In this document: piece by piece, positions 9,831-50,164 of the stretch
Numbering within the stretch: the first letter of the stretch is position 1
Layout of the letters: each line of letters starts with the position of its first letter
From: Psammoneis japonica
Lineage: Eukaryota
Assembly (NCBI GenBank): GCA_008632985.1
Contig: QPGO01000070.1
Coordinates: forward strand, 124,001 to 188,000
Direction: 5' to 3'
DNA length: 64,000 bases
The notes under the pieces: model-generated
The model's database searches: none
What the model was told of the DNA's origin: nothing
Seen by the model: only the letters and a program-made list of their open reading frames with translations
Position numbers and translations under genes: made by a program

Positions 9831-9849
9831 TCTTGTCGAAGATTGAGTT

Positions 9850-12802: not shown

Positions 12803-12867
12803 TGGCACACCATGCACAACCTTTGGAGTGGTTTGCAAATTGTGCCCAAGACATTTCATTTGGTGAA

Positions 12868-14959: not shown

Positions 14960-15730
14960 GACGATGAGCTCCAGCTCTGGGTGGGATCTCACACTGCTGA
15001 GCTGACGTGTCCAGCTCTGGGTGGGACCTTGCACTGCTGCTGAACTGTGGCATGGACAGTTTTTTGGATCGTGCTGCATGTCGCATGTCGCACACATGGA
15101 AAGGTGCATGACTTTGTGAAATTTTGGGTCATTTTGTGGCACACTTGTTGAGTGATCAATCCAACAACTTTTGACATTTTTTGTTGCAGTGCAAGTCTGT
15201 GATGTCTTAAAAATTGTGCAGGCACACAATTGCACCACAAACTTGGTTGTTTGTTTGATGTTGAAGACAAATGTGACCATTGATTAAATTCTTGCACTGC
15301 GGAGCTTGCACACAGATTTCTGTGGGCCCAATGTCACATGGAGTCCCACCCAGGACTGGAACCCATCAACTGTGACATCAACAGTTTTTTGGGTTGCACC
15401 GCATGTCGCACACACAGGCAGCAGCTGCACAACTTTGGTGGTGGAATTTTGCATCATTTTTTGCAGCACAATTGTTGGGCTGTCCATTCAACAACTTTTG
15501 ACATTTTTTCTTCTGCGCCACTCTGAAATGTCTTAAGAATGGTGCAGGGCAGGTGCTTTTTCAAAAACTTTGAGTGTGGACAGGTGCATGTGCACTGCAA
15601 ACTTGGTCGTTTGTTTGACGTTGAAGACAAATGTGTCCATCTGTTAAATTCTCGCACTGCGCAGCTTGCATGCAGAGTTCTGCGGGCCCAATGTCATCAC
15701 ATGGAGTCCCACCCAGGACTGGAACCCATC
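14960..15730. mobile_element. Two tandem, heavily mutated copies of the same MITE family
   Basis: Left end gacgtgtccagctctgggtgggac at 15004. Right ends cccacccaggactggaacccatc at about 15367 and 15730. Shared internal aaacttgg..tttgtttga.gttgaagacaaatgtg. Confidence 0.75.
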
Positions 15731-15806
15731 TGACATGTTTTGATTCATTCTTGTGCTTCAAGTTGGTGATTCGGGCGAGTGGCAAAAATTGGCAAAAATG
15801 GGCAAA

Positions 15807-15950
15807 GCATGGCGCCAGCCGTGCACCAGCACAATGGACCATTTTGCGCGGAAGATGACAGATGGAAAATCTGAAAAACAGCATGGCCAGCCATGCATCA
15901 GCATGATGGACCATTTTGTGTGGAAGATGACAGATGGAAAATCTGAAAAA
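15807..15950 (+). repeat. Two-copy tandem repeat of about 72 bp
   Basis: atggaccattttgYgYggaagatgacagatggaaaatctgaaaaa occurs twice. Confidence 0.85.
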
Positions 15951-16558
15951 TGGGATGTGCAGGAGATTTCCACCGTGCTTCTCCCTTGTGATTCAACACT
16001 TGTGATGGCGAGCGACAATCAGACACTGCGAAGCCGCAAAGCACATGTGCCAAAGCTGTCTGCCATCAAACAAAGTTCTGGAAAAGCCTTTTCCTTTCAA
16101 CAAGTGCCATTGAACACCATTGCTCATCTTCACAAGCACAGCGTTTTCTCTCGAGACGGGAAATCGTGGTGCAAATTTTATGCAGAAATTGCGCAGAAAG
16201 GAAGGGATGTGTCAGAACTCAATGAACGGGCCAAGATGACACACATCAGTGGCTAGAACTTGTCTTTAGCACGTAAAGAGCACATGGCATGTTCGTATGA
16301 CTTGCTCGGAATGTGTTGGGGGGCGGCAGTAGGAGACACTGAATTACACGTGGCTTGGGCGGGGAAATCTTTACTTTCGTGCATCCCATTTCGTCTGGCC
16401 ATCTTCCGTGTAAATTGGTCTATTTTCAACGGAAGCGGGGTTTTAGCTCACGCGCAATGCGGTAAGGCTAATGCAAAAATGCAATAAATTCGCAACAAGC
16501 ATCGGCAACAACAGAACACCATTCGAATCAGTTCACGCACAATAATTGTGTACGCCAT

Positions 16559-25644: not shown

Positions 25645-26816
25645 TTAATTGTTTTGATAGGTTGCATTGTACCACTCCACGGTTTGGCCAATTCCCTGTT
25701 CCAATGATACGGTTGGATTGTATCCAAGGAGACAATACGCCTTGGTAACGTTCGAGCACGTGTATGGCACATCGCCCGGTTGTTCTTGCTTAACGACAAT
25801 ATTGGCTCGCTTGCCCGTGGCGTTTTCAACCGTTTGTATAAAGTCTCGCAACGAATTCGGCACGCCCTTGCCCAGATTCAAAACCTCAAAGGCGGGTTGC
25901 GGCCGATCCATGGCGCGTACAATGCCCTGTACAATGTCGGAAATGTACGTGTAATCCCGCATCGAATCGCCGTGCCCGTATTGCTCTATTTGCAGTCCTC
26001 GACTAATGCGGTCGATAAACTTGAAGGGTGCCATGTCAGGACGACCGCGGGGTCCGTACACGGTGAAGAATCGAAGGCCCGTGACGTTCAAGTCATACAA
26101 ATGATGAAAGGTATACGAAAGCAATTCGGTTGCCTTCTTTGTTGCTGCATACGGACTAATGGGACGATCATCTACAGACGTTGCTTCATCAAAGACTCTG
26201 GAACTCGATTCGCCATAAACAGAGGACGACGATGCAAAGACAAAATTCTTGACCTTGTATTGACGAGAAATTCAAGCAGCCGCGTTGTGCCCTCCACGTT
26301 GGAATGAATGTAGACAAACGGTTCATCGATACTGGGTCGAACCCCGGCTCTTGCTGCCATGTGACAGATCCATTCAGGTCGCTCCTTTTCAAACACGTCC
26401 TTCATAAATATCTCGTCTGCCACATCGCCCTTGTAGATACTCAATTGTTTCTTGTCTTTTGCTTTTCTTCTGAGAATTTCTAGATTCGCCTCTTTTATGC
26501 TCACATTATAATACGAATTCATTTCATCCACAACAATTACAGTGTCGCCTCTCTCCAACAGAAATTCAGAAACATGACTACCGATAAAGCCAGCACCACC
26601 CGTCACCAAGACTCGCTTATGCCCCATGTGTGGTTCATTTTGTGATGGTGGACATGATTGTTGTTGGGAAGTAGTAGAAACTGCTTTTTGGCGTAGGAGC
26701 GCTTGACCCGGATTGTGAAAATTGCAATTTAGATGAAACCCAAAAAACTGAAGCATAAGCAAAAGAGAAATTGACAAGACAACAATAACTGTTGCATTGT
26801 TGATGAACGCCGTCAT
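25645..26816 (-). CDS. UDP-glucuronate 4-epimerase-like extended SDR with membrane anchor; 1-nt frameshift near 26268
   Basis: VLVTGGAGFIGSH, HMAARAGVRPSI, FASSSSVYG, SPYAATKK, LRFFTVYGPRGRPDMA. Confidence 0.9.
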
Positions 26817-27323
26817 GGTGACGACTCTCGCCGTGTAGAGGGAGTGAAGTACTCTTGCGATGTAGTGACAAGTGACCGACTGCGCGGGGCATCTTCGCTT
26901 CATCAATTGCCTCTGCCGTCACAGAAGAAAGCGATTTCCAACTTGCGTTGAAAACCATTTTGGTGGCATATTGAGTCCCGAGAACTTATCTACATGTCCT
27001 GCACTATAAATACATCATATCAACTTTCAAATTTTTGATCCTAATTATTCATTGCTTATATGCACGATTCATTTAAAAAATGGGAACTAACGGACCATAG
27101 ATTATATATATTTAATTCACATTCAACTACTAATAAAAAGAATACATATGAATTTTTGAGCAAGCAAGCCGAACGTTGAGAATCATCAGTCATCATCTGC
27201 ACCGAAGCCACAGCAAAGACACAGAAAAAACCGTCGGAATGAATGAAGTACCGGTTGGTTAGGTACCGGTGCGATAGTGTTATTTTGTGAACCCACAATA
27301 CAAGAAAAGAAAGCAACAACACC

Positions 27324-29937: not shown

Positions 29938-30139
29938 CAGGTATGCTACTCACTGACCACTATAGACATTGGTTAGAATGTTAACTACTCATGCTATACA
30001 TGCCGAATCCCTAGAGCTGTTCAAATGGTGGAAGGATGTTGCCACAGGTTTCAACTCTCTAGAGCTAGAGTAGAAAAGTAAAGAGAGGCTGTGGCAGGTG
30101 TGTGTGTGCAGTCTAAGTAAACGAGTTAGTCATAGAGTA

Positions 30140-31760
30140 GAGATGTTTGATTCGGATGCTGTTGTGGCCCACTTTGCATGGAATTGCCATGTAAGAAGAT
30201 GGAGATTGTGGCTGTTTTCTGTTCTGTTGACTCAAAGCTCCTGATGATTGCCATCATCCTTCTGTGTGGAAACTTGCAAAACACACCAAAGTCAGGTCGC
30301 TCCAAGGGGGGCTTTGCAACAAAGAAGGCTGTCGCAGCCAAAGAAACAGAGAAAGGGGGTGGGGGGGTTGGATCCTCATGGCATGCCGTGAAGCAGTGCT
30401 GGCTGCTCCTTCAATTCCTCCCAGAGTGCAGAAGCACCCCTTTGCACCCATGCCAACATTGAAAGGTGTTGGCAGGAAAGCAGAACCTTTGCCTGCTTGG
30501 TGTGTGGGAGATGTGATGACTGCCTCTGCTCAAACATGAGCTGCCAGTCCACCATGTGTGGCAAAGACCTTGAGTGCACCAAGAAGCTGGACAAACATGT
30601 TGCACTGACAACAACAAGCTGTGGTGCAGCACCAAGTGTTGAGGCACTCTGTTGTTGGCTGTTCATGCTGTCTGGAAGTGGCGCTGCATGCTGTGCAGTG
30701 CACATGGTTTTTTTGACATGACAAAACAAAAAAAGAGCAAGCAACACCTCAACTTTGTTGGGAGTGTCATCATCATCACCTTCTGACTTGCCTCTTTTCA
30801 ATTGAGGAGGACAACAGCACAGCAGCGGAAAGGGCCACAATTGGAGCTCAAAAAGCTCTGCTTGCAATGACAAATCTCATGACAAACAAAACTCTCTTGA
30901 ACCATCTGTTGTGCTGGCATCATTGTTGGGCAGGCTTAAATGAGAATCTGCCCATTTCTTGAGTGTGAGTGTCTGACGCGCACTTTGTGAATTGTTGACA
31001 GTCCAAGCACAGCAGCACTCGCTGCCATTGGAGTCAATGGCAGATGATCTTTTGATGCTGCAGAGTTCAGCCACAAAGCAACAACAGAGCCCAGTGGCAG
31101 AGTGGGGTAAAAAGCAGAGTTTTTGGAAACTCTGCTGTCAGCGCATCTTGCGACATTGTCAAGAGACGGAAATCACAGCTTGGCTGTGCTGAGAGAATGT
31201 TTTGGGCTGCACTGTCTCTGAGTGAGCATCAGCTCAGAGAGCCTCTACAAGCTGCTTCATTCTTGATTTTATGGCAACATTTTGTGCCAGCATGTTTGGG
31301 CACTTTCAGAGCCAAACAGACTTTTCATGACAAAAAGCACCACACAAAGTTGTCTGTCAAAAGTCAAAAGTGTGCCCAGAGTCTGCTGCAAGCAAAGTGC
31401 TGGTTCTCATCCTGACTCTGGAGGCTGTTGCTGGTGCCAACATTTCCAGTCCAGAAAGGCAGCAAGCATCTAACTAAAGCAGATGTCTGATGCTGGCTTC
31501 ACACTGCCAAGCGAAGCCCATTGTTGTGTTCTGTCTCAAAAATGAGTGTGGGGAGTGACTTCAAAAGTCACGCAAGTTGAGGTGACACTGGCAGTTGAGA
31601 GTGTGCAGCAACTGCATGTTTTCTTCAACACTCTCAGACCCTTCGGGGTTTTGCACCATGGCAAAATTGTTTTCCTGCTGTTTGTGCAGGATGTGATGGA
31701 CAAGAAAGATCTCGATGGTGTTGTTTGTGTTTTTTTAGATGACATCATCAGGTTATTGTT
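30140..31760. other. TA/CG-depleted degenerate block
   Basis: Abrupt loss of TA and CG relative to the flanks. No intact ORF. Confidence 0.6.
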
Positions 31761-32053
31761 TCTGTTCGGTAACGCGCCTGGAAAGTGGAAAGAAACGTTG
31801 ACTTTTTCTGACGTCACATACTTGATAGTATACCCAAAATAGTAGCCATAAGGTATTACGGATTGAATATATTTCAGAACGTTTTTATTGTTTTGGTGTA
31901 ACGATGACGTATGTGTCTCCGTCGTTAGCGACGATCGTCGCTGGAAGATCGATCGAGAAAAGAGAGCCATCAACTCGCATCACAAAATCCGTTCGATCCC
32001 AAAGAACATTATTTGCAGTTGCTATCACCGTATCTAGCTAGTATCCGTTCACA

Positions 32054-33042: not shown

Positions 33043-33827
33043 TCAAAACAAATCTTGAAGAAATCCACCTAGCATCTTTTTCTTGTGTTTCTTGGCCAGA
33101 GCCGCCTCAGTCTTGGCCATTTTCTTGGCATACTTTTGCGACTCCTTGACTTTGCTCTTTACTTCGGATTGAGCATCCTTGGCCATACTTTTTGCTTCCT
33201 CCAGCGCCGCCTTGGCCTTGTCAATAGCCTCCTGACTAGCGTGTTGCTCCTTGAGATTTGTCAGTTCTTCCAATTTCTCTGTTTCTTCCTTTGCAAGCTT
33301 ATCCACTTGTGTTTGAGCCTTGTTGGTTTGCTTTTCCAAGTCTTCCTTGTGTTTGGCAATTCGGCGTTCTACCGTTTCATTGTGCAAACGCGCGCGGTAC
33401 TTGTCGGCCACTTTGCGATTCACGGCAATTTGTTTCTTGGATTCGGCCGACAATTCAAATCGTGCAGCTTGCTTTCTCTTTAGCATATCCAGATATTCCT
33501 GATTTTGCTTTGATTCCTCCTTGCTCTTCTTGTCGTCGCCTCCTCCTCTGCTCGTTTAAATGGTAAGTCATACCAGCATAGTTGCGTTTTGCGTGTATGT
33601 GTGTGCAGAATTGTGGAAGCGTTCAAAACCAATCAGATATAGCTTTTTTCCTGAAAAACAATAAGACACAGATACAAAAAAGTCTCGTACCTTGGAACGT
33701 TGATCCGATCCACAACAAAAGTGCGCTGTGCCGCAGCAATTGCAGCAAACGAGGAGACGGCATCAGCACGACACGAAGCGACGCTTGCAAACACCAGCAG
33801 TAGCGCCATGGTTGTGGAGGCATACAT
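33043..33827 (-). CDS. Signal-peptide, Lys/Glu-rich coiled-coil protein; exons 33827-33691 and 33547-33043
   Basis: MYASTTMALLLVFASVASCRA. Intron gtacga...cag joins VPR^GGGDDKK in frame with ORF 33043-33486. Confidence 0.75.
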
Positions 33828-34913
33828 TATTATTGTGTTGAAAGAAACGTAAACTTTTGTTTCCAGAAAAAATGAATGGACACAGTGAAGAAAAAACTTG
33901 AGGTTGAAGGTGACAAGAATGGCAAAGGCTTTCAATGTAGTACGGTAGCAACAACTTCAGGATGAAAGTGAGACCGCAGTGTGACACGTGACGCGATGCG
34001 TGATGGTGAGATGCGTGACAGCGAAGATCTTTCAGCGATCGGCAGGGATTTGCATCATAAAATTTCTTCGTTAATTAAAATTATTTTGAACATGCCGGTT
34101 TGACTAGAGCAACCACCCAGAGCAGATTGCAAGATGACCGATTGCAAGGTCTTTGATGCAGGCTTCGATGTCTGAGACTTGGACAGATAAAATTCAGGCA
34201 ATGTCATGTCAAACATTGCCTTGTTCATGACTTGAACTGCGTTGTGAAGGCTTTTCACTTAAAAGCAGAAATTAGAAGCTTGAGAAATGACAAGAATTTT
34301 TTCAAGTGCTTTGCATGATTTGATGCAGCTCTGGTTGGCTCCACAATTGAGGAGGCCAAGCAGTTGCTCTGCATGTGAGGCAGAGGCAAGTCACACTTGC
34401 ACATCTGTGCTGATGCTTTCTTGAGATTCTTGAGCATTCTGACATTCAATTTCTCATTGATTTTGTCATGGATTTTTTGCAAATCTCTCCAACGGGCCAT
34501 CTGGGACGCCAACAATCTGGGTCTGACCGTCCGCCACAATCTGGGCATTTCTTGACTTTAATGCCAGATTGTTGTCAACTTGTGAGCCAATTCTCTCCTT
34601 GAACACAATGTGAGAACTGCACAAGTTTACAAGCTTCTAAAACCCAAATCGCTTCTCACTTTTAAGCATGGTCATTCTTTTCACACAATGCTGACCTGCG
34701 CCCCAATTGACATTTGCTGTTTCTCGTTCTTTTAACACAAATGTTGCTGCTTGCAATCCACCCTCATTTTCTCCCAACTCATCCTACATTTTATCTCTTT
34801 GCCATGTCTTTTCAAATCCAAATTCCCAATTGCCACACGTTCCTGCATCCAAACCGCATTTCAGAATGTTTTTTTTTATTTTCGCTTGTCCAGATTTTGT
34901 TGTTTGTTTCAAA

Positions 34914-36044
34914 TTACGTTTGCACACCAGTTTGGTTGGTGGCCATTGTGGCATTTGCTGCCGCTCTGTTGCCTGCAGCCACCACCTGCAATGGCAGGTC
35001 CTCTCCCATCGGCGCCGCCCATCCTTCCTCTCTCTCCTTTCTTTTTTCCTCTCTCTTGCGTTTCTTGTTTTCCTCCTGAGACAAGTTCGTCTTCTCTTGC
35101 CTTCTCTCCTTGAACCATGCACAGAATCCCTGGTTGTTCTCTCTGTCTTTCACCACCCACTGATGCAGATCATTGTGCTTCTTGATCCCCTCCTTGCTCC
35201 ATCCTTGGTGCCTCTTTGCCGATTCCCCCGCCACCTGCACTGTGCACTTTGCAGGAGCAGCGTCTTTCACAGTTGGCTTTCTTCTCCTTGCAACATTTTC
35301 TTCCTTTTCCAATTTCTCTGCCGTGTCCTTCACCTTGTTGCAGTGGTTCAAGTGCGCTGGCAGAGCAAACGCCTCTGACAAAATGGAAAGCCACTCCTGA
35401 AGCATGTCGGTTGTGCTTCTGCCAAACTGCGCTTGTCCCACCACCGTCGGCACCACAGTTTCCAAGAACCATGTGCATGTGTCCTTGTCATTTCTTCCCT
35501 TTGTCAAATCTTTGCAATCCACCAGCGATCCCTCTAAAGCAGCAACTGCACAGACAAAAGCAAAGGAAGCGACACTCATCCCGTTGGACAATCGCCTCCA
35601 ACACAATCAACGGCACGCACACATCTGCTCACCTGTCATTCTCCTCCCAATGTTGTCCTGCACATTGTTCCTCTTTCAGTTGAGTTTGGTCCTGAACACC
35701 TCTTTGCACTCTCCCCAGAATGCCTCCGGTGAAGACGCCATGCTCCTCAACTCCTGCAGAACCAACTTCATGTGATCTCCTCCTGCAGCGAGTTCATGAT
35801 CGAAGATTGTGAACTTGCGACATGGCCAAACACTCTCATTGACAACCTTTGTCAACATTGATGCTGTCAATTTCTCGCCCACTGCCGGTGCATGATCCAA
35901 CACAAGACATCCCTCTGTGGGAGTCACCACCGAACTTGAATCCCCACCTGCACACTGGAATCTGTTCAATTCCCCATGTTCGTTTCTTTGTGCATGCAAC
36001 AAGGCCACCACCGCAGGACTCATGGTGACTTCATGTGACACCAC
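34914..36044 (-). pseudogene. Degenerate TE-associated ORF (SEAFAL...KxT...GWSKEGI...VxxDR type)
   Basis: The motif order is recognisable in ORF 34914-35606, with presumed Tyr codons read as Cys/His. Confidence 0.5.
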
Positions 36045-36789
36045 ACAGACAAATCCAAGAACTCTGTCAGTTCATCAGCCACTCTTTGTCATGTCCTTTC
36101 TCAACCTCACTCACCGCTGGAAGTTGCACTTCCTCCCTCCGTCACTCCTGTGAGAACTGCACCCTCCATCTTTTTTACCTTCCCAATGGCTTCCTCTTGT
36201 TTGGAACTTCCGTCCTTTCCTGTCGCTTTGTGAAAGGCAAGTTGCGAAACGAACGCACTTTGCATGTGATTTTCTCGGTTTTGTTGTTGCTCGCGTGTCC
36301 TCTCTTGATTCAAACAGGTCTTTGTGTCATTTTTGAGTGCTCATTCCCAACCCCATGTTTGAATTTCTGTCAACGTTCCACTGTTTTGAATTGTGCGCCT
36401 TTGTTGGCCAATCCAGTGCACCAATGAAGATTGCAACATCATTTGGATCAATGCCAAACAACACATTGTATCTCCTTGTGTTGGTGCATGCATTGCGCCT
36501 GCTTCCTGATGCAACATCTGTTTCATTTGGTTTGTCAAGTCGTGTCAAACCTCCTGTTTGTTTGTGCAAATCCATGTCGCTCATTGTCTCATGTTAATTT
36601 GTCCCTGTCTTGACAGGTCATTCTCTCCACTTCCCCGACACCACATCTCTCCAATTGCTCTCTCCATTGCCCAAATTATCCAATCCACTTTCAATGGCTG
36701 CCAAAGGGTGTCATTGTCACTGAGACATGGCTGTTGTGAGTCGTTCCCGTTGTGGGAATGCGCGTTCCCTCCATTGCAATCACGTGCCA

Positions 36790-37485
36790 CCAATTGATGA
36801 TCAAATTGGTCATTTTGCTGGCGGTGGTGTGGAATCACATGGTGGTGCGGCAAGCTTTGCCTTCTTTGCCGAGGTCATTTGTAACCCCGCTCTCCCTGCG
36901 GCCCAAATTCAAAGCCCTTTTAATTTCCTCGACGTTGGTGGTGGTGTTGGTGGTTTTGCGATTGCCTGTCGTTTGCTTGTTCCTGCCTGTGATGCCTGCA
37001 GCATCGAGTTCCACCGCCCCCGTCATGATTTGGGCTCTCAGTGGTGTGGTGCCATCTGGCATGACCACACCAGTTGCTGTCCTGCCCTGATCAATCAGGG
37101 CTTCCTCTCTGAAGATGATGCTGTGCATCGGTTGCACCGTCTGAACAACTTAAAGATTTTCTTCAACAACTGCAATGGGCGAATGCTTTTTGACAACAAT
37201 GCGACACAGAACCAACTCAAGGAGATGCTGTCCAATGAGTGTCCTGAAGGCACTGTCGTTGTTTCACTGGACATGATGTTTTGTCTGTCTGCCCAAAAAT
37301 GGAGGCACGGAGCATTCTTTGTTCCTGCCTGTCCAGACAATCTATCGTGGGGAGGTGGTGTCGATGGGCACCTGCTTCACAAGCACACCAAGAAAAGAGA
37401 TGATGCCATGGAGCCAAGGCATTCCACTGGGAACAACCCAGGGTCTGACATCAAACAAAAATTCAAGCCTGCCAAAAGTGGGTGA
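36790..37485 (+). pseudogene. Class I SAM-dependent methyltransferase, DOT1-like, hypermutated
   Basis: S[H]GG, FLDVGGGVG, SIE, KIFFNN, CPEGTVVVSLD follow the DOT1 order YGE / DLGSGVG / GxE / FxNN / GxxIVS. Confidence 0.55.
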
Positions 37486-37640
37486 CTTTGCAGTTCCCCT
37501 TTGTTTGCAATGTAACTTTCTTCCATGCAAGCAATGCATTGTTAATTGGCCCTTTACACAAACCTGCTTTTTGCCTCTACCAACTTGCCACTTCACCAGT
37601 TTTGCATTCCAACAACTGCTTGTTCACACGCTTGCTGTGT

Positions 37641-38093
37641 TCACATGCTTGGTGTGTCGAAATTGTGGACCAGACATGCCATGTTCCTGCGATCCGAGTT
37701 CGTTTTGTTGGGCAAAGCTCGGTGCAACATTCTTGCATAAAAAACAAATGCAGTGCCTGCTTCTCCAACCAGTGATTGTTTTTCCAAACCCAACCCAACC
37801 AAGTGTCTTTCGCGTTCCTTCTCATTCAATGTCACCTCACAACTGTCCGGCCATGTCTCAACTGCACCATTGTGCTCCGTTGTGTCATTGAGGAACAGAA
37901 ACATGGTGAAAATTTTGTTGCCAGGTGATGATTTTGTTTCCACATAATCGCGATGAATTTCCCCCTTTGACCAGAAGTTTGATCTTGAACTTGAAGCAGG
38001 AGCATTTGCTGCTGTGTGCCGGGATGTCTTTCTGCATGAATCACCTGCCAGGGGAAAGCCAGGAATTGACTCCAACATTTTTTCTGCCAACAC
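37641..38093 (-). pseudogene. 2-oxoglutarate/Fe(II) dioxygenase, PhyH-like
   Basis: IHRD...FTMFLFLNDTTEHNGAVETWPDS...GEAGTAFVFYARMLHRALPNKTNSDRR gives the HxD..H..R motif. Confidence 0.75.
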
Positions 38094-40589
38094 AATGCCT
38101 TCCGCCTTGTCCTTTTTGTCAATGGTGAACTCACTGACAAAACGGTGTCCTTCCTTCTCTCACTTGCTGCTTGGTGCCTTGTTTGCCAGTGTTGTTGTCT
38201 GGTTGAGCAGGGGCAGTGGTGTTTTGAATTTTTGCAAGCAGCCTTTTTTTCCTTCCTGGTGCACTCTTTCTTTGGACCCGGCCATCTCACTCTTGACGAC
38301 ATGAGATTTCATTTCACCCGGTTGTGTCAGCAACAACTTGCCATGTTTCTGACACAACATTGTTGGCCAATGGGCAAATTTCCGGCATCCGTTCACAGAA
38401 CACTTCCGCACCATTCTCTGAAAATGCCTGTTCCACCAAATCAAATGGTGCCCAGTCTTTTTTTTTAAGTGGAGCAGACCCAATCCAGCGAAAGTCCACA
38501 TCCATTGCTGCACAACGAAAATGCCTTTCTCACCAAATGTGTGTTGCCAATGGCAGTCTGTCTGTTGGGTGCACCACAGACATTTTTTTCGTAAATGGTC
38601 CCGTGTGATGTGTTGCCAACCGCAGTCCATCTGTCGGGTGCACCACAGACGTTTTTTTCCTAAACAGTCCCGTGTGATGTGATCTTCGTCGATCCTGTTC
38701 ACTGCATGATCTCATTAAATGGGTCATCCCAGCCATCTCAAAAGTGCAGAAAACAATTTTGTTGCACACTGTCCTGCCATTGCTTTTGTGAGACATTTTC
38801 ACATCGCCGCCGTGGCAGACACAAAGGAACAGCTGCCATCCACTGTTCATTGCGCACCACAAACAAACTCTTTTGGAAGAAAGCACATGATGAACAATTG
38901 CACATGATGGGCATCACTTTTTTGTCAATGCACCTGTCTGTCAACAGAGCAATTTGGGGTCACTTTTTTGTTGTTGCAGCTGTGTGTTGACAAAGCAATT
39001 TGGTGTCACTTTTCCATCATTGCACACATTTGTCAACAGAAGAATTTGGTGTCAGGTTTTTGTCAATGCATGTGTCTGCCAATGCATGCCTTTGGCATCA
39101 CTTTTTTGTTCACACACTTGATGCTAGCCTGCACATTGTCGTGGCACAAAGTGCATCTCCCGCAGCAAACCACATTCTCCCAAATCTTGTCCAAGTCGCT
39201 GACCAACTCATGTTGGCAGCGAACAGATGATGTTTGGGCAACTCTGTCTCTTGTCCTCCACAGCCTTGTCATTCCCTTTGCAAAACAACAACCTCAAAAT
39301 GACTCCACCCCAAAGAATGCCACCCAGCCCCTTTCCTGTTACGCCACATCACCGAAATGGAACCGACGAATCTCTTTTTCGTCTGACACATCGTGCTTCT
39401 TTCCCGATGACATTCCACTTGACTCAACCTGCAGCGTTGGCCAATGATCCATCTGGCCGTTGTCCCCCGCTGGTGCATCTGGCCACGTTTGGCACAGAAA
39501 ACAGCCTTGACACCAAATTGAGGCTGTGTCATTCTCCCACACGTTGGGCAAACAAACGCGGTCATGTTCATTCGTCACTCAAAAAAGGGGTTTGACAGAT
39601 CACTCAATCCGCGGCATTGTGCTGATGATGTTTGATGCAAAAATCTTTACGTTCGAGAGCAGTGGGAAGAACAATGTGTGCAACCCAAACCACCTTGGTG
39701 AATTTGCAAAATGGCCGGCACACCCAAGCTGCGTTAGATTGGCTTTGAAGGAGGCAGCCCTCCTGGAGCTGGCTCAACGAAAGAAAAAAGGCATGCAAAA
39801 AAATCATTGATGCTTGCTGCTTCCAAACCAAAAATTTCAAAAGATCTGCAGCGGCACAGGTGAGGGATTGCATCTTGTGCACCACTTCAAATTCCCATCT
39901 GTTTCTCACCTGACAAAATCATTGTTGATGTTTCCTAGAATGAAAGCCATGCTGCCAAAACTCCAACGATTGCAGCTGGTGTTGACTCCGGTGTGGAGGT
40001 TGCCAATGATGACAACAATGACACAACATGGGTGGAGATGGATGTCATGGATGACGAACATCAAATTTTGACTGTTGCAGACAGTGAAGAAGTTTTGCCG
40101 GCAAGGAATTTCATCTGTCACACTGCTTCCATTTCCCATCTGTTCCCTGCCTCGATGGTCAGCCCCAATGAACTCAGGAACATCCACAGGACTGTCCTCT
40201 CCAAGGGCGGATGCACCATCATCTGCAAACAAAACAAATTGGCGGGCGTTTTGGGAGGCTGCGCTGGCGGCAGCAATGTTGGCGGCTGAACGCAATCGAC
40301 CAGAGCATCTGACGGAGGGTGGGCGCAGTCCATTTCCGGCAGAGGGAGGACAAGCTGGAGAAGAACTGTCCACTGGTGTGGGAGGAGATGGAGCTGGATT
40401 CCAAAGGACTTCGGGGAGGGGAGGAGGGGGTTTGTCGTCGGAGAAACCAAACCAGCAGGATCATCATGGTCGTCCAGTGATGCATCGTCTGGAGGGGGAA
40501 AGTGCACTGGCAGCAGCAGAAGATGCGGCATGCAGGCAAAGGGACATTTCCTCCTTTTCACGGCAGGGCAAGTGCTTCTGTAGATGAAG

Positions 40590-40965
40590 GGCGATGTTGG
40601 AAAAGGGGGCACGGCAATGGGGGCATTTGGGTTTGTTGGTGTTGGATCCAAGGGAGCCAATGGAGGCGGAATCCAGAGGATGAGAGGAAAGAGATGTTCC
40701 GCCAGATGAAGAAGACAATTGGGCTGTGCAGCGCAACTGTGTCAATGGGGGAAGGAGACCAGATGCTGCAGTGCAGTGCCAAGATGGGTGACACTGCACA
40801 TTGTTTTCGGAGTCAAATCCACGTTGTCTGCAATGAGGACAACCAAAAGACTTGGTGGAAACGGCGGAATGGAGGCAGTTAGTTGCGATGTGCCTGCTGA
40901 GACCATGCTCGGAAAAGAAACCAGCTCGTTTGCACCATGGACAAACAAGGCCATCAGACGACATG
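40590..40965 (-). pseudogene. Tandem C2H2/C2HC zinc fingers at the start of a degenerate TE ORF
   Basis: CPWCKRAGFFSEHGLSRHIATNC, CPHCRQRGFDSENNVQCH, CPHCRAPFSNIALHLQKH. Confidence 0.65.
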
Positions 40966-42289
40966 GCCGATGTGCAGAGACGAAGGAGTTGAGAAGAGAA
41001 TCGAAAGGGAACAGTGTGTGCAGCAACAATCACTTGGGGACACAGTGAGGGCAGAAACACAGAGAAACAACGTGCGATCGACATGGAAGGTGTCATGGAT
41101 GGATGGGAAGGAAGGATGGAATGGGCAGGGAGAGAAAATTGAGAAGACAGTTAGAGTCCACATTGATGGATGCAGGCGGCGATTTTGATCCAGAAAGTTG
41201 AATGACACACAATCCAGAAACCAAGGTGGAATCAAATGTGCACATGAGGCTTGTCGGATGGGGGGGGGGGCAAACAGCCAAATTGAGGAAAATGGATGTT
41301 TGTTGTTGAACATTTCAGAAAAGCTGACTTGACAAATCAGCACGAGATCTTGGATTGAAGGGAGAGAATATTGGGTTCTATTTCAAGAAATCTTGACAGC
41401 TGGTGCGACACCTGGATCATTGGCGTCCCAGATGCGGCGTGCTTCTAAGATCATCTGAATGATTGTTGCAGGTGCTGGGAGTGTCTTCCATCATGTTGTG
41501 TGGCTGATTCTGCTGCAAAGGTTTTGGCAATGGCTGGGCCACTTTTGCAACTGGCTCTGAGCTTGGTTCTTGTCTGGGCTGCTGGCCTTGTCCCTGCTGT
41601 TGGCTGGATGAGGGCTGGACTTGTTGAAATCACAGTTGACGGTTTTCTTGCTCATGGTGAATTGCGCTGCACTCTTGTCCATTTAAATGGACTGTCTCAG
41701 GTTTGGACACAAGTTGTTGGTTTGGGAACTCAAGCTGGAGTTGGGCTTGGGATGCAAGGCTTGCTGACCCCTTGATGCTTGACCTCATTTCTGGCTGCTG
41801 TGCAGTTGCATTGCAGTTTTGACAAGGTGGCAAAGACAAATCTGAATGGTCGATGTGGTGCAGACTCTTGCAGCATTGGACTTGATTGCTGAGACAGAGC
41901 CCACGTGGGTCATTTGATTTGACTTGGAAATTTCTCCATGATTTGCGACATCATGCTTTTTTGGACAATGACAGCCAGCTCCAATTCTGTGAACTTGGCA
42001 ACAGTCTGAGCATTGTCTTCTTCCAATGGCAATGGCGTGCAACCAATTGGATCATTGAGCTGATGGGTGCATTGCAAAAAAGGTTGGACAGCATCGTTCT
42101 GAGGCTTTTTGAGTGACTCTGCAACAACAGCCTTTTTTGGCATCTGCTGCAATGTCTTGGGACATTTTCATCAATGACACGACCTCTTCACATGCCACTT
42201 TGAAGGTGTCTTGGCTGCAATCTTTACACTGTTCAAGTGCAGCACACCTGGCAGTCACTTTTTGGCATGCCTGACAGGAGGCAGCCAAC

Positions 42290-45200
42290 ATCAGAGGTGG
42301 CAACACAGTGGTTTCCACTTTCCTTTGTAAAATTTTGAGTGTGCATTGTCAAAATTGTCAGCAAGCAACTTAAAAAATGCCAGCAAAAGTGCTTGACAAA
42401 ATGAAGCTGTTTTTTGCATTTCATCTGATGTCTCATTAACTTTTCTTGCACAAGCTTCAATCAAATGCATGCAATGTTCAAGTCAATCAGGAACAAAATC
42501 TGTTTTTTGTCATGCATGGTTTGGTTTCCTTTTGATCGCAATCAATTTGAACTTGGTTTTCACTTCGTCCTCCTCACTCACGTGTGTGTGTCTTTGCACG
42601 TGTGCAGCCTGCAGCAGCACTTCACACACGCACGTGACCCACCTTCATTTTTCTTCACTTTTGTGCAGCCCGTTGGGTCTGCGGCGTTTTCTGCATGTGT
42701 TTTGCACGCGCAATTTTCCACACATTTCACAACAGCACACGCTCTCCCCAAAGTTTGAAAAATGAGAGCGTGCGCTGTTGTGACTCACGTGGATCCTGCG
42801 TGTGGTCGCAAATCTGCAAATCGACAACCGGCCATGGCAGTGAAAGACTTTGCCCCATTGGCCGATGACAGCAGCTCAACGCATGGTGACACCTGCCATC
42901 CTTCTAGTTGGTCAAGATGGGGTTTTATTTGGGCGCAGCTTGAATTTTGTGATCCTGAGTGTGCTGTCATGCACACATGGCCGTTGCTGGTCACAGAATT
43001 GACCATGTTGTGCAGCCACACTTTCAGCCACAGAAGTTGCAGAGGTGCTTTCATTCACAAGAGTTGGGAGCTGCTCCCCAAAACATGTGATGCAGCATGC
43101 ACAATGACAGAGACAATGACAAACACCACACATTTCATGTGTTGGCATGCCCTGCTGTCTTTCACAGCTTTGAAATGTCAAGTGTGGACACTTGTGATCA
43201 ATGCTTTTGTTGTGCATCCTCATGAGCTTTGACAGTTGTGCAGAATTTTCTCAAAGAAAACAACCACCTGTGCTGCTGCTGCAGCTTTCAATGCACTCCT
43301 GGACAAGAGCCCCAGCACCTCAAACAGAGCAGCTGCACAAGGCAGCTGGATCAAGAATCAAGAAGATGGCTCCAACAAAGAGATCACACAGACAAAAAAG
43401 TGATGAAAAAAGTGCTGCACTGTTGGGTTGTGAGACTCGACTTTGCCAAACAGTCAGCACTGACCTCATGCATGAATCCCCAGCCAATGATGTCCTGCTC
43501 CTTGGAAGAGGCAGCCCCCCATGCCACAACACAATTGCTGGGGAGCATGCAGACAATGTGCACACAAGAACACATCATGCACCACCTGCAATGCCCACCT
43601 GACTCTGCACCTCCCGACACACCCTGGATCACTGCATCAGAGCATGCAATGTGGTGATCATCACACATTTTTCATTGTGATTTTTGTTCCTTTCACAGAC
43701 AATTTTTTTGTGGTTTCAAACCTCACCAGTTGTGCAGCTGGCAATGACATGTCAACTGTGATGGATTGACATTTTTGTGCTGTGGGATCAGAACCCCCTC
43801 CCCATGAGAAAAAATGTTTCACCATGAAAAAGGGACACGTTTTCCCCATGAGAGTGCCCACCCTCCATCCCTGCAAAACCTGTAAATTAAAATCATTTGC
43901 ATTGCACCATGAACATTCCATTTTGTTGTTCACAACATTCAAATTAAATGACGCCGACGGAGACAACACCCCAGAGTCTGCAGCAATTGCAGCTCACTTT
44001 CTTCAAGTGCCGCTGCTTGCAGCCACCTTGTTCATTGCCAAAAAAGTGCAAAATGCGTTGTGAGAGCACAATGTGGATGAACTGACACCACCAACAGGAA
44101 CAGCAACACAGACTTGCCGGTGCATCCGGCGCCGCCGATTCTGGAGCAGGTGAGTTTGTAGCAGCTGCTGCAGTTCTCTTTCTTGAAGAGCCACTGCCAG
44201 TGCCAGCAGCCACCTTGTTCATTGTCGAACGGTGCAGAAAACGTTGTGAGAGCACAACAAAGATGAGCCAACCACAACCAATGGAGACGTCAATGCACAG
44301 ACTTGCCTGTGCACCCAGCGCCGCTGATTCTGGACCAGGTGAAGCAACACTGCTCTGATCCACCTCATTCATTGCAAAGAAGTGCAAAATGCTTTGTGAG
44401 AGCACACAGGACAACAACAGCAATCAATTGAAACCGCAACACAGACTTGCTGGTGCATCCACCGTGGCCAATTCAGTCGCTTCTGCCGCCGGTTCCCGAC
44501 CCCTTGAAGCCGATTCAGGACCATGTGAAGCAACATTGCTCTGATCCACCTCATTCATTGCAAAGAAATGTGGGGTGCTTTGTGAGAGTGCACGGGACAA
44601 CAACAGCAACCAATTGAAACCTCAACGTAGACTTGCAGGTGCACCCGCCACCGCCGCCGATTTGGGAGCTTCTGCCACCGGTTCCCGACCCATCGACATG
44701 GAATTGGCAGCTGCCGTGGTTGTTGCAGTCGACCCCCCCTGCTGCTCTTGATCACAAACAGTGGAGAGACTTGGGAAGCCTTTAAAAATGAGCCCAACAA
44801 CTCAGGCAACTTCCAATGGGTTGCCTCCCCACTCTCTGCCTCTGCAGTCTTTCTGGATCTGGGTGCAGAAATTGGAGAAGACGGGTGCAACGTAAGTGAA
44901 CACATCAAAAACAAGTGAAGCTTCTCTTTTTGTGCATGCCTTTTTTGAAGAGTGTCACACATGGCAAAGAACTTTTCACATGTGTGATTCTGAGAGCTGC
45001 AGGAACAAGCACCGCCTGCAGTCTTTCTGGGTCTGGACACAGAAATTGGAGAAGACGGATGTGTTGTCAGCGAATGCATCAAAAACCAACGAACCTCTTT
45101 TTGTACATGCCTTGTTTGGACAGTGCAATTCATGGCAACTTGTGATGATTCTGGATGCAAAACTCTGACATGCGTGATTGCAACAATGCTGCAGAAAAGT

Positions 45201-45955
45201 GAGTTTGTGACATGCATGCACACAACACACAACAACATGCCAGCAGCTCAGCATTCTGGATGCGGCAGATTCGTGACAGCACACTCGCGATCACAAAATT
45301 CAAGCTGCGCCCGAATGAAACCCCATCTTGACCAACCAGAAGGATGGAAGGCATCACCACACATTGAGCTGCTGTCATCGGCCAATGGGGCAAAGTCTTT
45401 CACCACCATGGCCGGTTGTCGATTTGCAGATTTGCGACCACACGTGGGATCCACGTGAATCACAACAGCACGCGCTCTCGTTTTTCAAACTTTGGGGAGG
45501 AGAGGGTGTGCTGTTGTGAAATGTGCAGAAAATTGCACATGCAAAACACATGCTGAAAACACCGTAGACCAACAGGCTGTGCAAAAGTGAAGAAAAATGA
45601 AGGTGGGTCACGTGCGTGCGTGAAGTGCTGCAGACTGCACACGTGCAAAGACACACACACGTGAGTGAGGAGGACAAAGTTAAAACCAAGTTCAAATTGA
45701 TTACGATCAAAAGGAAACCAAACCATGCACAACAAAAAATGGATTTTGATCCCAGCTGAACCAAACATTGCATGCATTTGATTGAAGCTTGTGCAAGAAA
45801 AGTTAATGAGACATCAGACAAAATGCAAAAAACAGCTTCATTTTGTCAAGCACTTTTGCTGGCATTTTTTAAGTTCTGCTTGTTGACAATTTTAACAATG
45901 CACACTCAAAATTTTACAAAGGAAAGTGGGGGCCACTGCATTGTCGCCTCTGATG
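42290..45955. mobile_element. Element bounded by inverted arms of about 680 bp (42290-42970 and 45275-45955)
   Basis: cactttcctttgtaaaattttgagtgtgcattg at 42316 vs its reverse complement near 45895-45928. Similarity is continuous across the arms. Confidence 0.75.
44020..44640. repeat. Internal degenerate tandem repeat, about 4 units of 150-190 bp (mirrored at about 48480-49090)
   Basis: Recurring ttcattgc..a...tgtgagagcaca...cagacttgc..gtgca.cc. Confidence 0.75.
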
Positions 45956-46941
45956 TGCTGAAGCACGTGCGCACTTCTTGCTCCTGGGACCAAGCCAAAG
46001 ACAAGATCAGACGTGTTCCAGCCGCACGTGAACCAAATCGTGCACAAAAACGACATTTGCGCGATTTTTGCGCGGTCCCTAACTTCCGATCGAACTTTCA
46101 CCACCAAAAGTATAGATTTATACAAATGTGGATGTTTTGAAACACTAACAAGACTCGTGTGAGTGTTGCAATATCATTGTTATTGTGGTATCTATGTTTT
46201 TCATTGCGTTAAGAGATTCGTAACACAACGGATGATTTTCGGCGAAAATATTGCCGTTATTCGCATGTTACCTAAATATATATTTCTACAATGCTACTTG
46301 GTAGGTTTTCTACCTACAAAGAAATCTCAGTATAAATATACTGACGAACAATCAGTATTGAGTCTACTGAGGAAGTTTATGATATTTACCCATGAAGACT
46401 TGAATACCCCTCAAAAAACTATTTAAATGCTCATACTCTAGAAGCCTATAAAAGTCAATCCGTCTAAGTATTTTATATGAAAATGATTCATACACTAAAA
46501 GATATATAAATTATGTTCAAAATCGATTGTCGTTTTGTGCGTCACCTGGGACTGGAACACGTCATCAGTGCTGGGCTCTCAGGGCAGAGCCCTGCACACT
46601 TTGAGTTGGCCAAATTTGACAAGACACTGGCAAACTTTCCCTTTTTGTTGCTGGCTGCTTCCCAAATGTTGGCAACAGGGGGCAGATCTTCTTGCTCCAA
46701 AGACCAAAGAAAAAAAGTTTTGGGAAGGAAAATGGCGTGCAGTGCTGGGGCTCAGATTTGGATTGCAAGGGACATCAGAGGCAGCAACATGGTGGTTTTC
46801 ACTTTCCTTTGTAAAATTTTGAGTGTGCATTGTCAAAATTGTCAACAAGCAGAACTTGACAAATGCCAGCAAAAGTGCTTGACAAAATGAAGCTGTTTTT
46901 TGCATTTTGTCTGATGTCTCATTGACTTTTCTTGCACAAGC

Positions 46942-47324
46942 GACAGGTTCTGGGTGGGACTTTTTGTGACATTTGCCCCGTAGAATGCTGCGTGTGAGCT
47001 CTGCAGTTTGTGCTCTGGTCAATGGACATGTTTGTCTTCGACACAAAAAAAACGGCCAAGTTTGCAGTGCATGTGTCCCTGTTCGCACTCGAGGTTTTGG
47101 ACAATGCGCCTGCCCTGCGCCATTCTTAAGACACTCGAGAATGGCGTAGAAGAAAAAAATGTTAAAAGTTGTTCAATGGACAGCCTGACAATTGTGCTAT
47201 AAAATCATACAAAATTTTGCCAAAATCACGTAGAAATGTACGTGCGCGACATGCGGCGCGATTCAAAAAACTGTCGATGTCACAGTTCAGCAGTGCAAGG
47301 TCCCACCCAGACCTGGAATGCGTC
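46942..47324. mobile_element. MITE-family copy inserted in the right IR arm, TSD AAGC
   Basis: Empty site cacaagcttcaa at 42449. Filled site cacaagc|gac...gcgtc|aagcttcaa. Confidence 0.88.
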
Positions 47325-50164
47325 AAGCTTCAATCAAATGCATGCAATGTTTGGTTCAACTAGGATCAAAATCCATTTTTTGTTGTGCATGGTTTGGTTT
47401 CCTTTTGATCGCAATCAATTTGAACTTGGTTTTAACTTTGTCCTCCTCACTCACGTGTGTGTGTCTTTGCACGTGTGCAGTCTGCAGCACTTCACGCACG
47501 CACGTGACCCACCTTCATTTTTCTTCACTTTTGCACAGCCTGTTGGTCTACGGTGTTTTCAGCATGTGTTTTGCATGCGCAATTTTCTGCACATTTCACA
47601 ACAGCACACCCTCTCCTCCCCAAAGTTTGAAAAACGAGAGCGCGTGCTGTTGTGATTCACACGTGGATCCCACGTGTGGTCGCAAATCTGCAAATCGACA
47701 ACCGGCCATGGCGGTGAAAGACTTTGCCCCATTGGCCGATGACAGCAGCTCAATGTGTGGTTGTGCCTGCCATCCTTCTGGTTGGTCAAGATGGGGTTTC
47801 ATTCGGGCGCAGCTTGAATTTTGTGATCGCCAGTGTGCTGTCACGAATCTGCCGCATCCAGAATGCTGAGCTGCTGGCATGTTGTTGTGTGTTGTGTGCA
47901 CGCACATCACAAACTCACTTTTCTGCAGCGTTGTTGCAATCACGCATGTCAGAGTTTTGCATCCAGAATCATCACAAGTTGCCATGAATTGCACTGTCTC
48001 CAAACAAGGCATGTGCAAAAAGAGGTTCGTTGGTTTTTGATGCATTCGCTGACAACACATCCGTCTTCTCCAATTTCTGTGTCCAGACCCAGAAAGACTG
48101 CAGGCGGTGCTTGTTCCTGCAGCTCTCAGAATCACACATGTGAAAAGTTCTTTGCCACATGTGACACTCTTCAAAAAAGGCATGCACAAAAAGAGCTTCA
48201 TTTGTTTTTGATGTGTTCACTTACGTTGCATCCGTCTTCTCCAATTTCTACATCCAGATCCAGAAAGACTGCAGAGGTGGAGAGTGGGGAGGCAACCCAT
48301 TGGAGGTTGCCTGAGTTGTTGGGCTCATTTTTAAAGGCTTCCCAAGTCTCTCCGCTGTTTGTGGTCAAGAGCAGCAGGGGGGGTCGACTGCAACAACCGC
48401 AGCAGCTGCCAATTCCATGTCGATGGGTCGGGAACCGGTGGCAGAAGCTCCCAAATCGGTGGCGGCGGATGCACCTGCAAGTCCACATTGAGGTTTCAAT
48501 TGGTTGCTGTTGTTGTCCTGTGCACTCTTACAAAGCATTTTGCATTTCTTTGCAATGAATGAGGTGGGTCAGAGCAATGTTGCTTCACATGGTCCTGAAT
48601 CGGCTTCGCGGGGTCGGGAACCGGCGGCAGAAGCAACCGAATTGGCCATGGCAGATGCACCAGCAAGTCCATGTTGCAGTTTCAATTGGTTGCTGTTGTT
48701 GTCCCATGCACTCTCACAAAGTGTTTTGCACTTCTTTGCAATGAATGAGGTGGATCAGAGCAGCGTCACTTCACCTGGTCCAGAGTCAGTGGCGCTGAAC
48801 ACACAGGCAATTCTGTGCATTGATGTCTCCATTGGTTGTGGTTGGCTCATCTTTGTCATGCTCTCACAATGTTTTCCACACCATTCGGCAATGAACAAGG
48901 TGGCTGCCAGTGCTGGCAGCGGCTCTTTAAGAAAGAGAGCTGCAGCAGCTGCTGCAAACTCGCCTGCTCCAGAATCGGTGGTGCCGGATGCACCAGTGAG
49001 TCCATGTTGCTGTTCCTGTTGGTGGTGTCAGTTCATCCACATTGCACTCTCACAACACATTCTGCACTTTTTTGGCAATGAACAAGGTGGCTGCAAGCAG
49101 TGGCACTCAAAGAAAGTGAGCTGCAACTGCTGCTGCAGACTCCAGGGTGTTGTCTCCATTGGCATCATTCAATTTAAATGCAAACAACAAAATAGAATGT
49201 TCATGGTGCAACGCAAATGATTTCAATTTACAGGTTTTGCAGGGACAGAGGGCGGGCACTCTCACAGGGAAAACGTGCCCCTGTTTCATGGTGAAACATT
49301 TTTTCTCATGGGGAGGGGGGGTCTGATCCCACAGCACAAAATGTCAATCTGTCACAGTTGACATGTCATTGCCAGCTACACAACTGATGAGGTTTGAAAC
49401 CACAAAAAAATTGTCTGTGAAAGGAGTGAAAATCACAATGAAAAGATGTGTGATGATCACTGTGTTGCGCGCTCTGATGAACAAGACGGAAATGTGACAC
49501 ACACCAGGAGCCCTTCACCGACATCCAGACACAGGGTGTTGACATTTTCATCAAATGACTTGTCTGAGCACTCTGGGTGAACAACGCCCCCGCAAGGGCA
49601 GTTTTGTGCTGACATGGCCGTTCAGAACAAAATTCACAGAACCAGAAGATGTCAGATGGGTGGCTTCATGTGCAGAAGCTGCTGAGGTCAAGGCAGACAG
49701 ATGGATAGAATCGATGGGGAGCAAATTTACCATGCCCTGTGGCGCCAGATGACAGTTACAAAGTGGTTGAAAAGAAGTTGACTGACAATCGAATTCTTGA
49801 GCCAAAGTGAGAGATGAGCTTTAGAACCGCGTTCTCAAAGGTCCACGTAGGGAACACGTAGACGACCTATTGAGAGATCTTGAAATGACTTATGGATGAC
49901 CCTTTATCAGTACTGTACATACTGTAGGTTGCAGTCAATGCATGGAGATCGCACTGTACTGCACCTACTACTTAAGAGCAATGAGAACCTTGGACAGAAT
50001 CGAATCCGAGCCATAAGAAGCCATAAGTCATTGGTAACAATTATGGCGTTGATGTTAACAAACACAGGGATAATAGGCCAGGTGGTGAGTCACACGGCAA
50101 AAACTCCAAAACACCAATTCCAAATTTTCAATACAAGGAAAGCATCAGCCAAGCAGAACACACC

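Follow-up and report, generated by a model that had tools for sequence, protein, structure and literature searches.

A decayed, high-copy element with inverted ends in Psammoneis japonica and its candidate cargo pair of a PhyH-type dioxygenase and a DOT1-like methyltransferase

Introduction

DNA transposons carrying dioxygenases of the TET/JBP type were reportedly described by Iyer et al. in 2014. The fungal members of this group are the closest known systems to the element considered here, which occupies positions 34498-41434 of a 64,000-nucleotide (nt) stretch of the Psammoneis japonica contig QPGO01000070.1 (contig positions 124,001 to 188,000, forward strand; this whole stretch is referred to as the window). 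As listed in a recent survey, fungal DNA transposons with a TET/JBP dioxygenase belong to the KDZ, hAT, Harbinger, IS3EU, EnSpm, Plavaka and Helitron lineages (Kojima 2025, PMC12730594), and the benefit proposed for them is escape from epigenetic silencing. The element in the window resembles these transposons in being bounded by terminal inverted repeats (TIRs) and in carrying a 2-oxoglutarate/Fe(II) (2OG/Fe(II)) dioxygenase as cargo beside or in place of a transposase. Its dioxygenase, unlike theirs, is predicted to fall in the PhyH clan and to have a zinc ribbon at its N-terminus. Further differences are the pairing with a lysine-methyltransferase-type gene, the failure to find a transposase and, to judge by gene content, a host that is apparently outside the fungi.

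A second point of comparison is a Mutator-like element (MULE) recovered from metagenomic sequence (locus L003, 4463-12878). This element has a dioxygenase of the same family with the same N-terminal zinc ribbon, a convergent putative histone-lysine methyltransferase gene, internal tandem repeats and inverted ends. However, the partner gene encodes a SET domain there and a DOT1-like protein here, a MULE transposase is present there and none was found here, the end sequences are unrelated, and the composition of L003 is normal (observed/expected ratio, o/e, of the dinucleotide TpA 0.62). The methyltransferase-like protein of the window shares the class I motif I with the H3K79 methyltransferases DOT1 and DOT1L, and its features in the ESM Atlas lie nearest to clusters of 160-220-amino-acid (aa) proteins bearing PF08123. 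In contrast to DOT1/DOT1L, it lacks a PF08123 match and is encoded by a transposon instead of belonging to the genes of the host. Fusions of SET, PHD and Chromo domains with transposons, as well as DOT1 in Mimiviridae, are reported by Grau-Bove et al. (bioRxiv 10.1101/2021.11.30.470311), and no DOT1-type gene described as cargo of a DNA transposon was found in the literature searched.

The composition of the locus also has a described counterpart. In Bigelowiella natans, integrated viral DNA is hypermutated at TpA only (TpA to TpG or CpA), and TpA-poor genes are enriched in transposon domains, according to Mettrop et al. (bioRxiv 10.64898/2026.01.13.699255). The two systems share the loss of TpA, the gain of CpA and TpG, and the confinement of this signature to repeat or foreign DNA. 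They differ in degree, with TpA o/e values of 0.03-0.15 here and 0.45 in the viral region of B. natans, and in kind, since a loss of CpG is added here (bioRxiv 10.64898/2026.01.13.699255).

A high-copy family bounded by inverted ends

The element is one copy of a high-copy family that is bounded by a pair of inverted ends (Table 1). Contigs of one public DNA run were aligned to positions 33500-42500 at a likeness of at least 80%. Summed contig depth, which does not equal copy number, was 62-85 in the left flank (33500-34402) and 66-80 in the right flank (41627-42228); inside the element it stood at 3,856 in the bin 34403-34703, ranged from 1,332 to 6,203 up to position 41325 and was 1,069 in the bin 41326-41626. 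The 3,647 aligned contigs span a wide range of divergence (663 at 99% likeness or more, 880 at 95-99%, 1,310 at 90-95% and 794 below 90%). Ten of them break off exactly at 34498, and the sequences with which they continue agree at just 0.41 with one another, which indicates that they derive from other copies in other places. Together, the depth step and these ten unlike flanks define a high-copy family whose left edge falls on the first base of the left arm. The first-pass annotation, made from the sequence of the window, had proposed an element with these ends, and both the element and its boundaries are confirmed; a unique and coincidental match between the ends, which it had named among the outcomes that would refute it, is not what the contigs show.

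The two arms are complementary at 21 of 25 positions (84%) and contain a 15-nt exact core. Their four mismatches amount to two CA/TG swaps, as had been described, and had been read as decayed CG. The swaps are present, but an ancestral TA that decayed to CA or TG fits equally well. Taken alone, the match between the ends is weak evidence and not significant when measured against block-wise dinucleotide shuffles of the window. Per window, the shuffles lead one to expect 1.27 exact inverted 15-mers within 12 kb, with one or more in 70 of 100 shuffles, and 0.18 inverted pairs of at least 21/25 matches with a 12-mer seed, with one or more in 18% of 60 shuffles; the real window holds one other such pair outside a large duplication at 42-49.6 kb. 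The odds that the ends are real are raised by two further features. The heptamer ATCTGGG, which occurs nine times in the 64 kb (6.9 expected), has four of its nine occurrences at the ends of the element, and a second block, ATTTCTTGA, is shared between the two ends. The end pattern had 0 matches in the viral_contigs collection.

The family is structurally heterogeneous. One contig joins 36860 to 40614 and represents an internal deletion form lacking 3,753 nt, and depth in the middle of the element (38316-40121) is 1,332-2,427, lower than near the ends. Over the two enzyme genes (36510-38315), depth is 2,223-6,203 and as high as near the ends. Six contigs that agree with one another at 0.97 leave the present copy leftward of 39216, from which it follows that sub-families with a different middle exist.

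Table 1. Features of the element in the window (positions in the window; strand as + or -).
Feature	Position	Strand	Description and basis
Whole element	34498..41434		6,937 bp; decayed member of a high-copy family; contig depth
Left terminal inverted repeat	34498..34522	+	Inverted-pair match; loose ends of contigs exactly at 34498
ATCTGGG subterminal copies	34499, 34515, 34539 (within 34499..34545), direct	+	Motif count; fourth copy at 41427-41433 (-)
Second end block ATTTCTTGA	34547-34555; inverted partner 41383-41391	+	End-to-end alignment, 9/9 after a 6-nt indel
Orphan open reading frame P0001	34914..36071	-	385 codons, two in-frame TGA; probably the 'TE-type ORF' of the first-pass annotation
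Class I S-adenosylmethionine (SAM)-methyltransferase-like open reading frame with DOT1-like features	36724..37485	+	253 codons, first ATG at 36727, no internal stop
Predicted zinc-ribbon and PhyH-type 2OG/Fe(II) dioxygenase gene	38414-37641	-	257 codons, in-frame TGA at 38160-38162; Pfam, homologues, fold model
Tandem repeat	38540..38681		69 nt x 2.1, upstream of the dioxygenase start
Tandem repeat	38914..39082		46 nt x 3.7
Open reading frame with three CPxC..H zinc-finger-like strings	40464..41150	-	In the dioxygenase frame, about 19 stops apart from it; zf-C2H2_4 below threshold
Right terminal inverted repeat	41410..41434	-	Inverted-pair match; depth drop between bins 41326-41626 and 41627-41927

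The dioxygenase gene

The best-supported gene of the element encodes a PhyH-type dioxygenase. The open reading frame (ORF) at 37641-38159 (-) exceeds the Pfam cut-offs for both PhyH (31.7 bits, cut-off 22; E 2.5e-7) and 2OG-FeII_Oxy_3 (29.1 bits, cut-off 27). The minus-strand frame 41150-37641 was read through, with its 21 stops as X, and scored against 1.84 billion representative proteins. This gave 86 dioxygenase homologues at E <= 1e-3, 31 of them at E <= 1e-10, all aligning solely to residues 906-1169 of the frame. These homologues stand alone, measure about 240-350 aa and share the opening pattern M..C...GC(R/Q)K.....C..H, and in the alignment the window copy has the same zinc-ribbon start with its ATG at 38414, from which the extent of the gene was set. 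The iron-binding HxD...H triad (H154, D156 and H231) does not vary among 44 aligned sequences, and the window copy retains it, although this copy has lost an Asp that is nearly invariant and lies five residues ahead of the distal His.

Assignment to the PhyH clan is consistent across methods. Of 27 homologues, 26 match PhyH, and the family profile finds AviO1 (4xaa, E 8.5e-9), 6ec3 and PhyH-type enzymes in the PDB. An alignment-based AlphaFold model (predicted local distance difference test score, pLDDT, 84.4) has a PhyH-clan fold, in keeping with the double-stranded beta-helix of these enzymes, and its top match in Foldseek is KanJ (E 1.2e-8, template-modelling score, TM, 0.54), within a best set formed by KanJ, AndA, GriE, PrhA, AviO1 and SnoN (E ~1e-8 to 1e-7, TM 0.5-0.57). 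Matches of the model to viral structures are generic (TM 0.4-0.54). The homologues are metagenomic and, where named at all, are called 'hypothetical protein'; a search of the protein database for longer relatives gave none, nor did a scan of viral_contigs with the 27 homologues. The HxD..H..R dioxygenase recognized in the first-pass annotation is thus upheld by Pfam scores above cut-off, by the retained triad and by its 86 homologues, and the protein is predicted to be a PhyH-clan enzyme with a zinc ribbon. However, the accompanying comparison to KDZ elements, with its TET/JBP-type cargo, does not carry over. A TET/JBP identity is ruled out by the Pfam matches of the enzyme and its homologues to PhyH and by the PhyH-clan matches of its profile and model, and JmjC and AlkB were likewise rejected as identities for this PhyH-type enzyme.

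The methyltransferase-like reading frame

The second cargo candidate is a methyltransferase-like ORF that is convergent with the dioxygenase gene, with 155 nt between the two stops. Its Gly-rich motif I (FLDVGGGVGG) is followed by an acidic residue at post-I and, beyond the fourth predicted strand, by two adjacent Asn residues (IFFNN). Motifs in this order make up the DOT1 pattern, of which the Asn-Asn pair is a hallmark. Generic methyltransferase families of Pfam match weakly (Methyltransf_2, E 0.014, under the cut-off), and PHROGs and NCBIfam gave nothing useful. In the ESM Atlas, a search with residues 40-215 returned a first match at 0.95 with 204 of 256 features shared, which is to be read as a lead, given that about one shuffled protein in 100 also scores 0.95 and the scale is not calibrated for parts of proteins. 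The cluster in question is named for the DOT1 domain and carries PF08123 on 53% of its members. Seventeen of the 30 matches fall in a DOT1-only set, the ten best family-bearing matches all share the family or clan of the best match, and the nearest clusters consist of 160-220-aa proteins of diatoms, oomycetes, haptophytes and giant viruses.

On these grounds the ORF is quite likely to be DOT1-like, and it is not filed as a proven member of the DOT1 family. A convergent SAM-methyltransferase with a DOT1-like order of motifs had been claimed from the sequence of the window: the convergent methyltransferase ORF stands, while its DOT1 character is supported by the Atlas clusters but not by the Pfam model PF08123.

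Relatives of the dioxygenase in metagenomic elements

Relatives of the dioxygenase were sought in metagenomes with three of the 27 aligned homologues as query, and the scan yielded five loci, which represent two distinct elements, of 86 homologue clusters. The more informative element is that of L003. Downstream of its dioxygenase gene (6274-6993, +) come a SET-domain gene in convergent orientation (7065-8399, -; E 1.5e-6), then tandem repeats and then a gene for a MULE transposase (9275-12121, -; E 6.4e-13). Inverted ends of 33 nt with 82% identity, at 4463-4495 and 12846-12878, enclose an element of 8.4 kb. Locus L002 is 99.4% identical to L003 from 4462 onward and unlike it before that position, which shows the left end of the element to be real; no clean duplication was seen in the flanks. 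The dioxygenases of the window and of L003 share 40% identity over 120 aa (E 1.7e-24). In the other element, found at L004 and L005, the dioxygenase faces a 365-aa ORF without a Pfam family (L005 10973-12070, -). TpA o/e is 0.22 at L005, against 0.62 at L003.

In sum, this dioxygenase family is transposon cargo in at least one other organism, and it is convergent with a lysine-methyltransferase-type gene there too. There are two observations of the pairing of a dioxygenase with a methyltransferase-type gene, and these do not yet make a rule. The linkage of the cargo to TIR elements elsewhere, on which the initial proposal had been made to depend, is seen for the dioxygenase in the TIR-bounded MULE, where its methyltransferase partner is a SET-domain protein.

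Several other features of these loci were recorded. Just outside the 8.4-kb MULE, at L003 1135-3504, there is another Mutator-like transposase gene that differs from the first (PF20700, E 2.3e-24). Both L004 and L005 (1-12740) hold an intact dioxygenase homologue in DNA with a TpA o/e of 0.22-0.31 and TG/CA values of 1.3-1.4, and L005 may come from an organism with the same mutator. L005 also contains two ORFs of more than 1,000 aa without a Pfam family, and an ORF of 1,241 aa from this locus gave no meaningful alignment with the methyltransferase ORF of the window. The 365-aa ORF of L005 has an H-x-D string and a later His in a Gly-rich stretch, which hint at a second cupin-type oxygenase; it had no match in Pfam or the PDB.

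Composition and decay

The element is strongly altered in dinucleotide composition, with o/e values of 0.08 for TpA, 0.48 for CpG and 1.63-1.64 for TpG and CpA. The TpA- and CpG-poor domain is wider than the element, extending from about 34.0 to 45.75 kb and again from 46.5 to 49.5 kb, and the signature is also present in the flanks at 34000-34497 and 41435-42288, even though their depth is that of single-copy DNA. Other odd patches lie at 1-2000, 10000-16000 and 30000-32000, among genes of normal composition. Overall, odd patches show a TpA o/e of 0.03-0.3, a CpG o/e of 0.2-0.6 and TpG/CpA values of 1.5-2.3.

The present copy is decayed, with in-frame TGA codons both in the dioxygenase gene and in P0001. 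TGA accounts for 19 of the 21 stops in the minus-strand frame 37641-41150, a dominance that is expected if TpA loss erased TAA and TAG, and if CGA or TGG codons decay to TGA; the inactivation of this copy, as first suggested, is supported by these stops and by that in the dioxygenase. Among the listed differences between copies, 746 of 917 are transitions. At least 13 of the 40 best-supported differences from other contigs set CpG against TpG or CpA, in both directions, which implies that CpG decay continued after amplification of the family.

Remaining reading frames, repeats and the search for a transposase

The other ORFs of the element are without recognizable relatives. P0001 matched nothing in Pfam, PHROGs, NCBIfam, the PDB, the Atlas, viral contigs or the protein database, and the label of a transposable-element-type ORF that it had probably received finds no support in any collection searched. 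For the ORF at 40464-41150, zf-C2H2_4 scored 22.9 bits (cut-off 27; E 1.2e-4); neither this ORF nor the P-rich ORF had a homologue among the 1.84 billion representatives or a match in the PDB. Of the zinc fingers that had been claimed, three CPxC..H strings are present, but the Pfam score is under the cut-off and homologues are lacking. The 'Cys/Lys-rich repeats' likewise exist, as DNA tandem repeats of 69 nt and 46 nt; the latter is unlikely to be a simple protein repeat because its period is not a multiple of three. Long, Cys/His-rich ORFs are expected here from composition alone: in every reading frame, Cys and His codons become more frequent where TG and CA are in excess, and two of the three stop codons disappear along with TpA.

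No transposase core had been recognized at the outset, and the Pfam scan of element ORFs of at least 80 aa agrees: it found no transposase (MULE/Mutator transposase domain included), integrase, reverse transcriptase, helicase, capsid, packaging ATPase or polymerase domain. A tblastn comparison of the two L003 transposases with the window gave only matches at E > 3. Failure to find a transposase would fit a non-autonomous copy.

Surroundings of the element in the window

The window as a whole has about 47% G+C and contains ORFs for a leucine-rich-repeat (LRR) protein, a CRAL/TRIO protein, a dual-specificity phosphatase, a GDP-mannose-dehydratase-like enzyme, a major facilitator superfamily (MFS) transporter and a nucleotide-sugar transporter. 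The GDP-mannose-4,6-dehydratase-like/epimerase gene (25648-26918, -) is split over two overlapping ORFs, implying an intron or a frameshift. To the right of the element, a separate high-copy repeat begins at 42289, where 17 contigs have loose ends. The interval 42288-49479 is a nested inverted duplication, in which 43635-45791 corresponds to 49479-47324 (93%), and 42288-42969 to both 45956-45274 (90%) and 47324-47843; its long ORFs have no Pfam family. A run of 352 N at 60661-61012 marks an assembly gap.

Interpretation and alternatives

The interval 34498-41434 is a decayed copy of an abundant TIR DNA element, most likely a cut-and-paste (class II) transposon, that probably carries a pair of enzyme genes as cargo. 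The present copy would be either non-autonomous or the carrier of a transposase of no recognizable family. A transposase supplied in trans would bind the ATCTGGG repeats, which may be its binding sites, and move the element. As paired cargo, the lysine-methyltransferase-type enzyme and the dioxygenase would benefit the element by acting on chromatin or on some other substrate in the nucleus, one possible benefit being that its chromatin is kept permissive. This last proposal is made because DOT1-type methylation opposes silencing in yeast; on this basis we infer an anti-silencing role. The copy would later have been disabled by point mutation in a domain bearing the signature of TpA to TpG/CpA and CpG to TpG/CpA change.

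A number of observations weigh against this interpretation. With regard to the element itself, its right edge is located only to a 300-nt bin, summed depth is no count of copies, and no exact target-site duplication of 2-12 nt was found at the two flanks. The flanking 8-mers CAACGGGC and CGGCGTGC are identical at five of eight positions and of the same purine/pyrimidine class at seven of eight (post-hoc chance ~0.017), and a blurred 8-bp duplication is possible because differences between copies are mostly transitions. No transposase family was detected by Pfam in any ORF of at least 80 aa, residues 1-905 of the long minus-strand frame (41150-37641) have no homologue, and ORF length and 'zinc fingers' are weak evidence in TpA-poor DNA. 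Concerning the dioxygenase, its nearest solved structures (KanJ, AndA, GriE, PrhA and AviO1) act on small molecules, and nothing links the enzyme to histones or DNA. It is also the sole part common to the window and the metagenomic elements, comparisons of L003 and L005 proteins with the window giving E > 0.5 only, and its partner is a SET-domain gene in one of these elements and an ORF of no family in the other (L005). The DOT1-likeness of the methyltransferase ORF rests on one language-model search and the motif pattern. PF08123 was not matched at E <= 10 by the whole ORF or by two trimmed cores, a phmmer search of the PDB returned chance matches only, a word-index protein search at near lengths and a scan of viral_contigs returned none, and tblastn against phage records gave two chance matches. 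The single-sequence AlphaFold model of this ORF has a pLDDT of 33.

On a rival reading, the transposon is real but its two enzyme genes are host or viral passengers, captured by chance in the manner of Pack-MULEs, of no use to the element and now pseudogenes. Neither gene has a demonstrated chromatin substrate, the genes of the present copy are broken or unverifiable, and depth is lowest over 38.3-40.1 kb, so that many copies would be without the middle. Genes available for such capture exist, since diatoms, oomycetes, haptophytes and giant viruses have DOT1-domain proteins that stand alone and are similar in size. However, Pack-type capture usually yields gene fragments, while the dioxygenase is whole from its start codon to its C-terminus, zinc ribbon included. 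The same dioxygenase family is intact in another TIR transposon, again convergent with a lysine-methyltransferase-type gene, and depth over both genes (2,223-6,203 at 36510-38315) matches that near the ends. Chance capture of passengers is regarded as unlikely.

A bolder proposal than that of an enzyme-carrying transposon would have a two-gene module, comprising a zinc-ribbon PhyH dioxygenase and a convergent histone-lysine methyltransferase, captured independently by unrelated protist DNA transposons as a counter-defence that rewrites a chromatin or DNA mark at the element, the methyltransferase being of DOT1 type here and of SET type in the MULE. If true, such a module would weaken silencing by the host, or else the TpA/CpG hypermutation of repeats to which this copy finally succumbed. 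This proposal is speculative and unlikely.

A viral origin is distinctly improbable. The element would in this case be an integrated and amplified virus-derived or virus-satellite element, for instance one akin to transpovirons or a piece of a giant or polinton-like virus. Transpovirons have inverted ends and a size of ~7 kb, the DOT1 clusters nearest the methyltransferase include several from Nucleocytoviricota, and 2OG oxygenases are common in giant viruses and phages. However, the ORFs of at least 80 aa gave no match to a capsid, packaging ATPase, polymerase, helicase or integrase domain, three protein scans and one end-pattern scan of viral_contigs were empty, and the structure matches were generic (TM 0.4-0.54). 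The sole informative relative sits in a MULE transposon. The TpA to TpG/CpA signature is known from integrated viral DNA of B. natans, but the same preprint finds transposon domains enriched among TpA-poor genes (bioRxiv 10.64898/2026.01.13.699255).

That the inverted ends are a chance match within a non-mobile duplicated segment is very hard to credit: the shuffle expectations (0.18 per window for a pair of at least 21/25, 1.27 for a 15-nt exact inverted run) and the want of a clean target-site duplication would allow it, but the depth step and ten unlike-flank contigs fall on the first base of the left arm, ATCTGGG clusters at both ends, a second conserved block is found in both, and thousands of diverged contigs align.

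Implications

Transposons with epigenetic enzymes of their own are known mainly from fungi, in the form of TET/JBP carriers, and a few retrotransposons carry DNA methyltransferases. The element described here may likewise be a mobile gene carrier equipped with chromatin-modifying enzymes of its own, and it would extend this idea to a dioxygenase of another class and, as its partner, a gene of histone-methyltransferase type. The repeats of the genome in which it resides show a rare signature of adenine-directed hypermutation. A Mutator-like element has the pair again, SET taking the place of DOT1, and this recurrence points to a reusable cargo module, which biochemistry can test directly.

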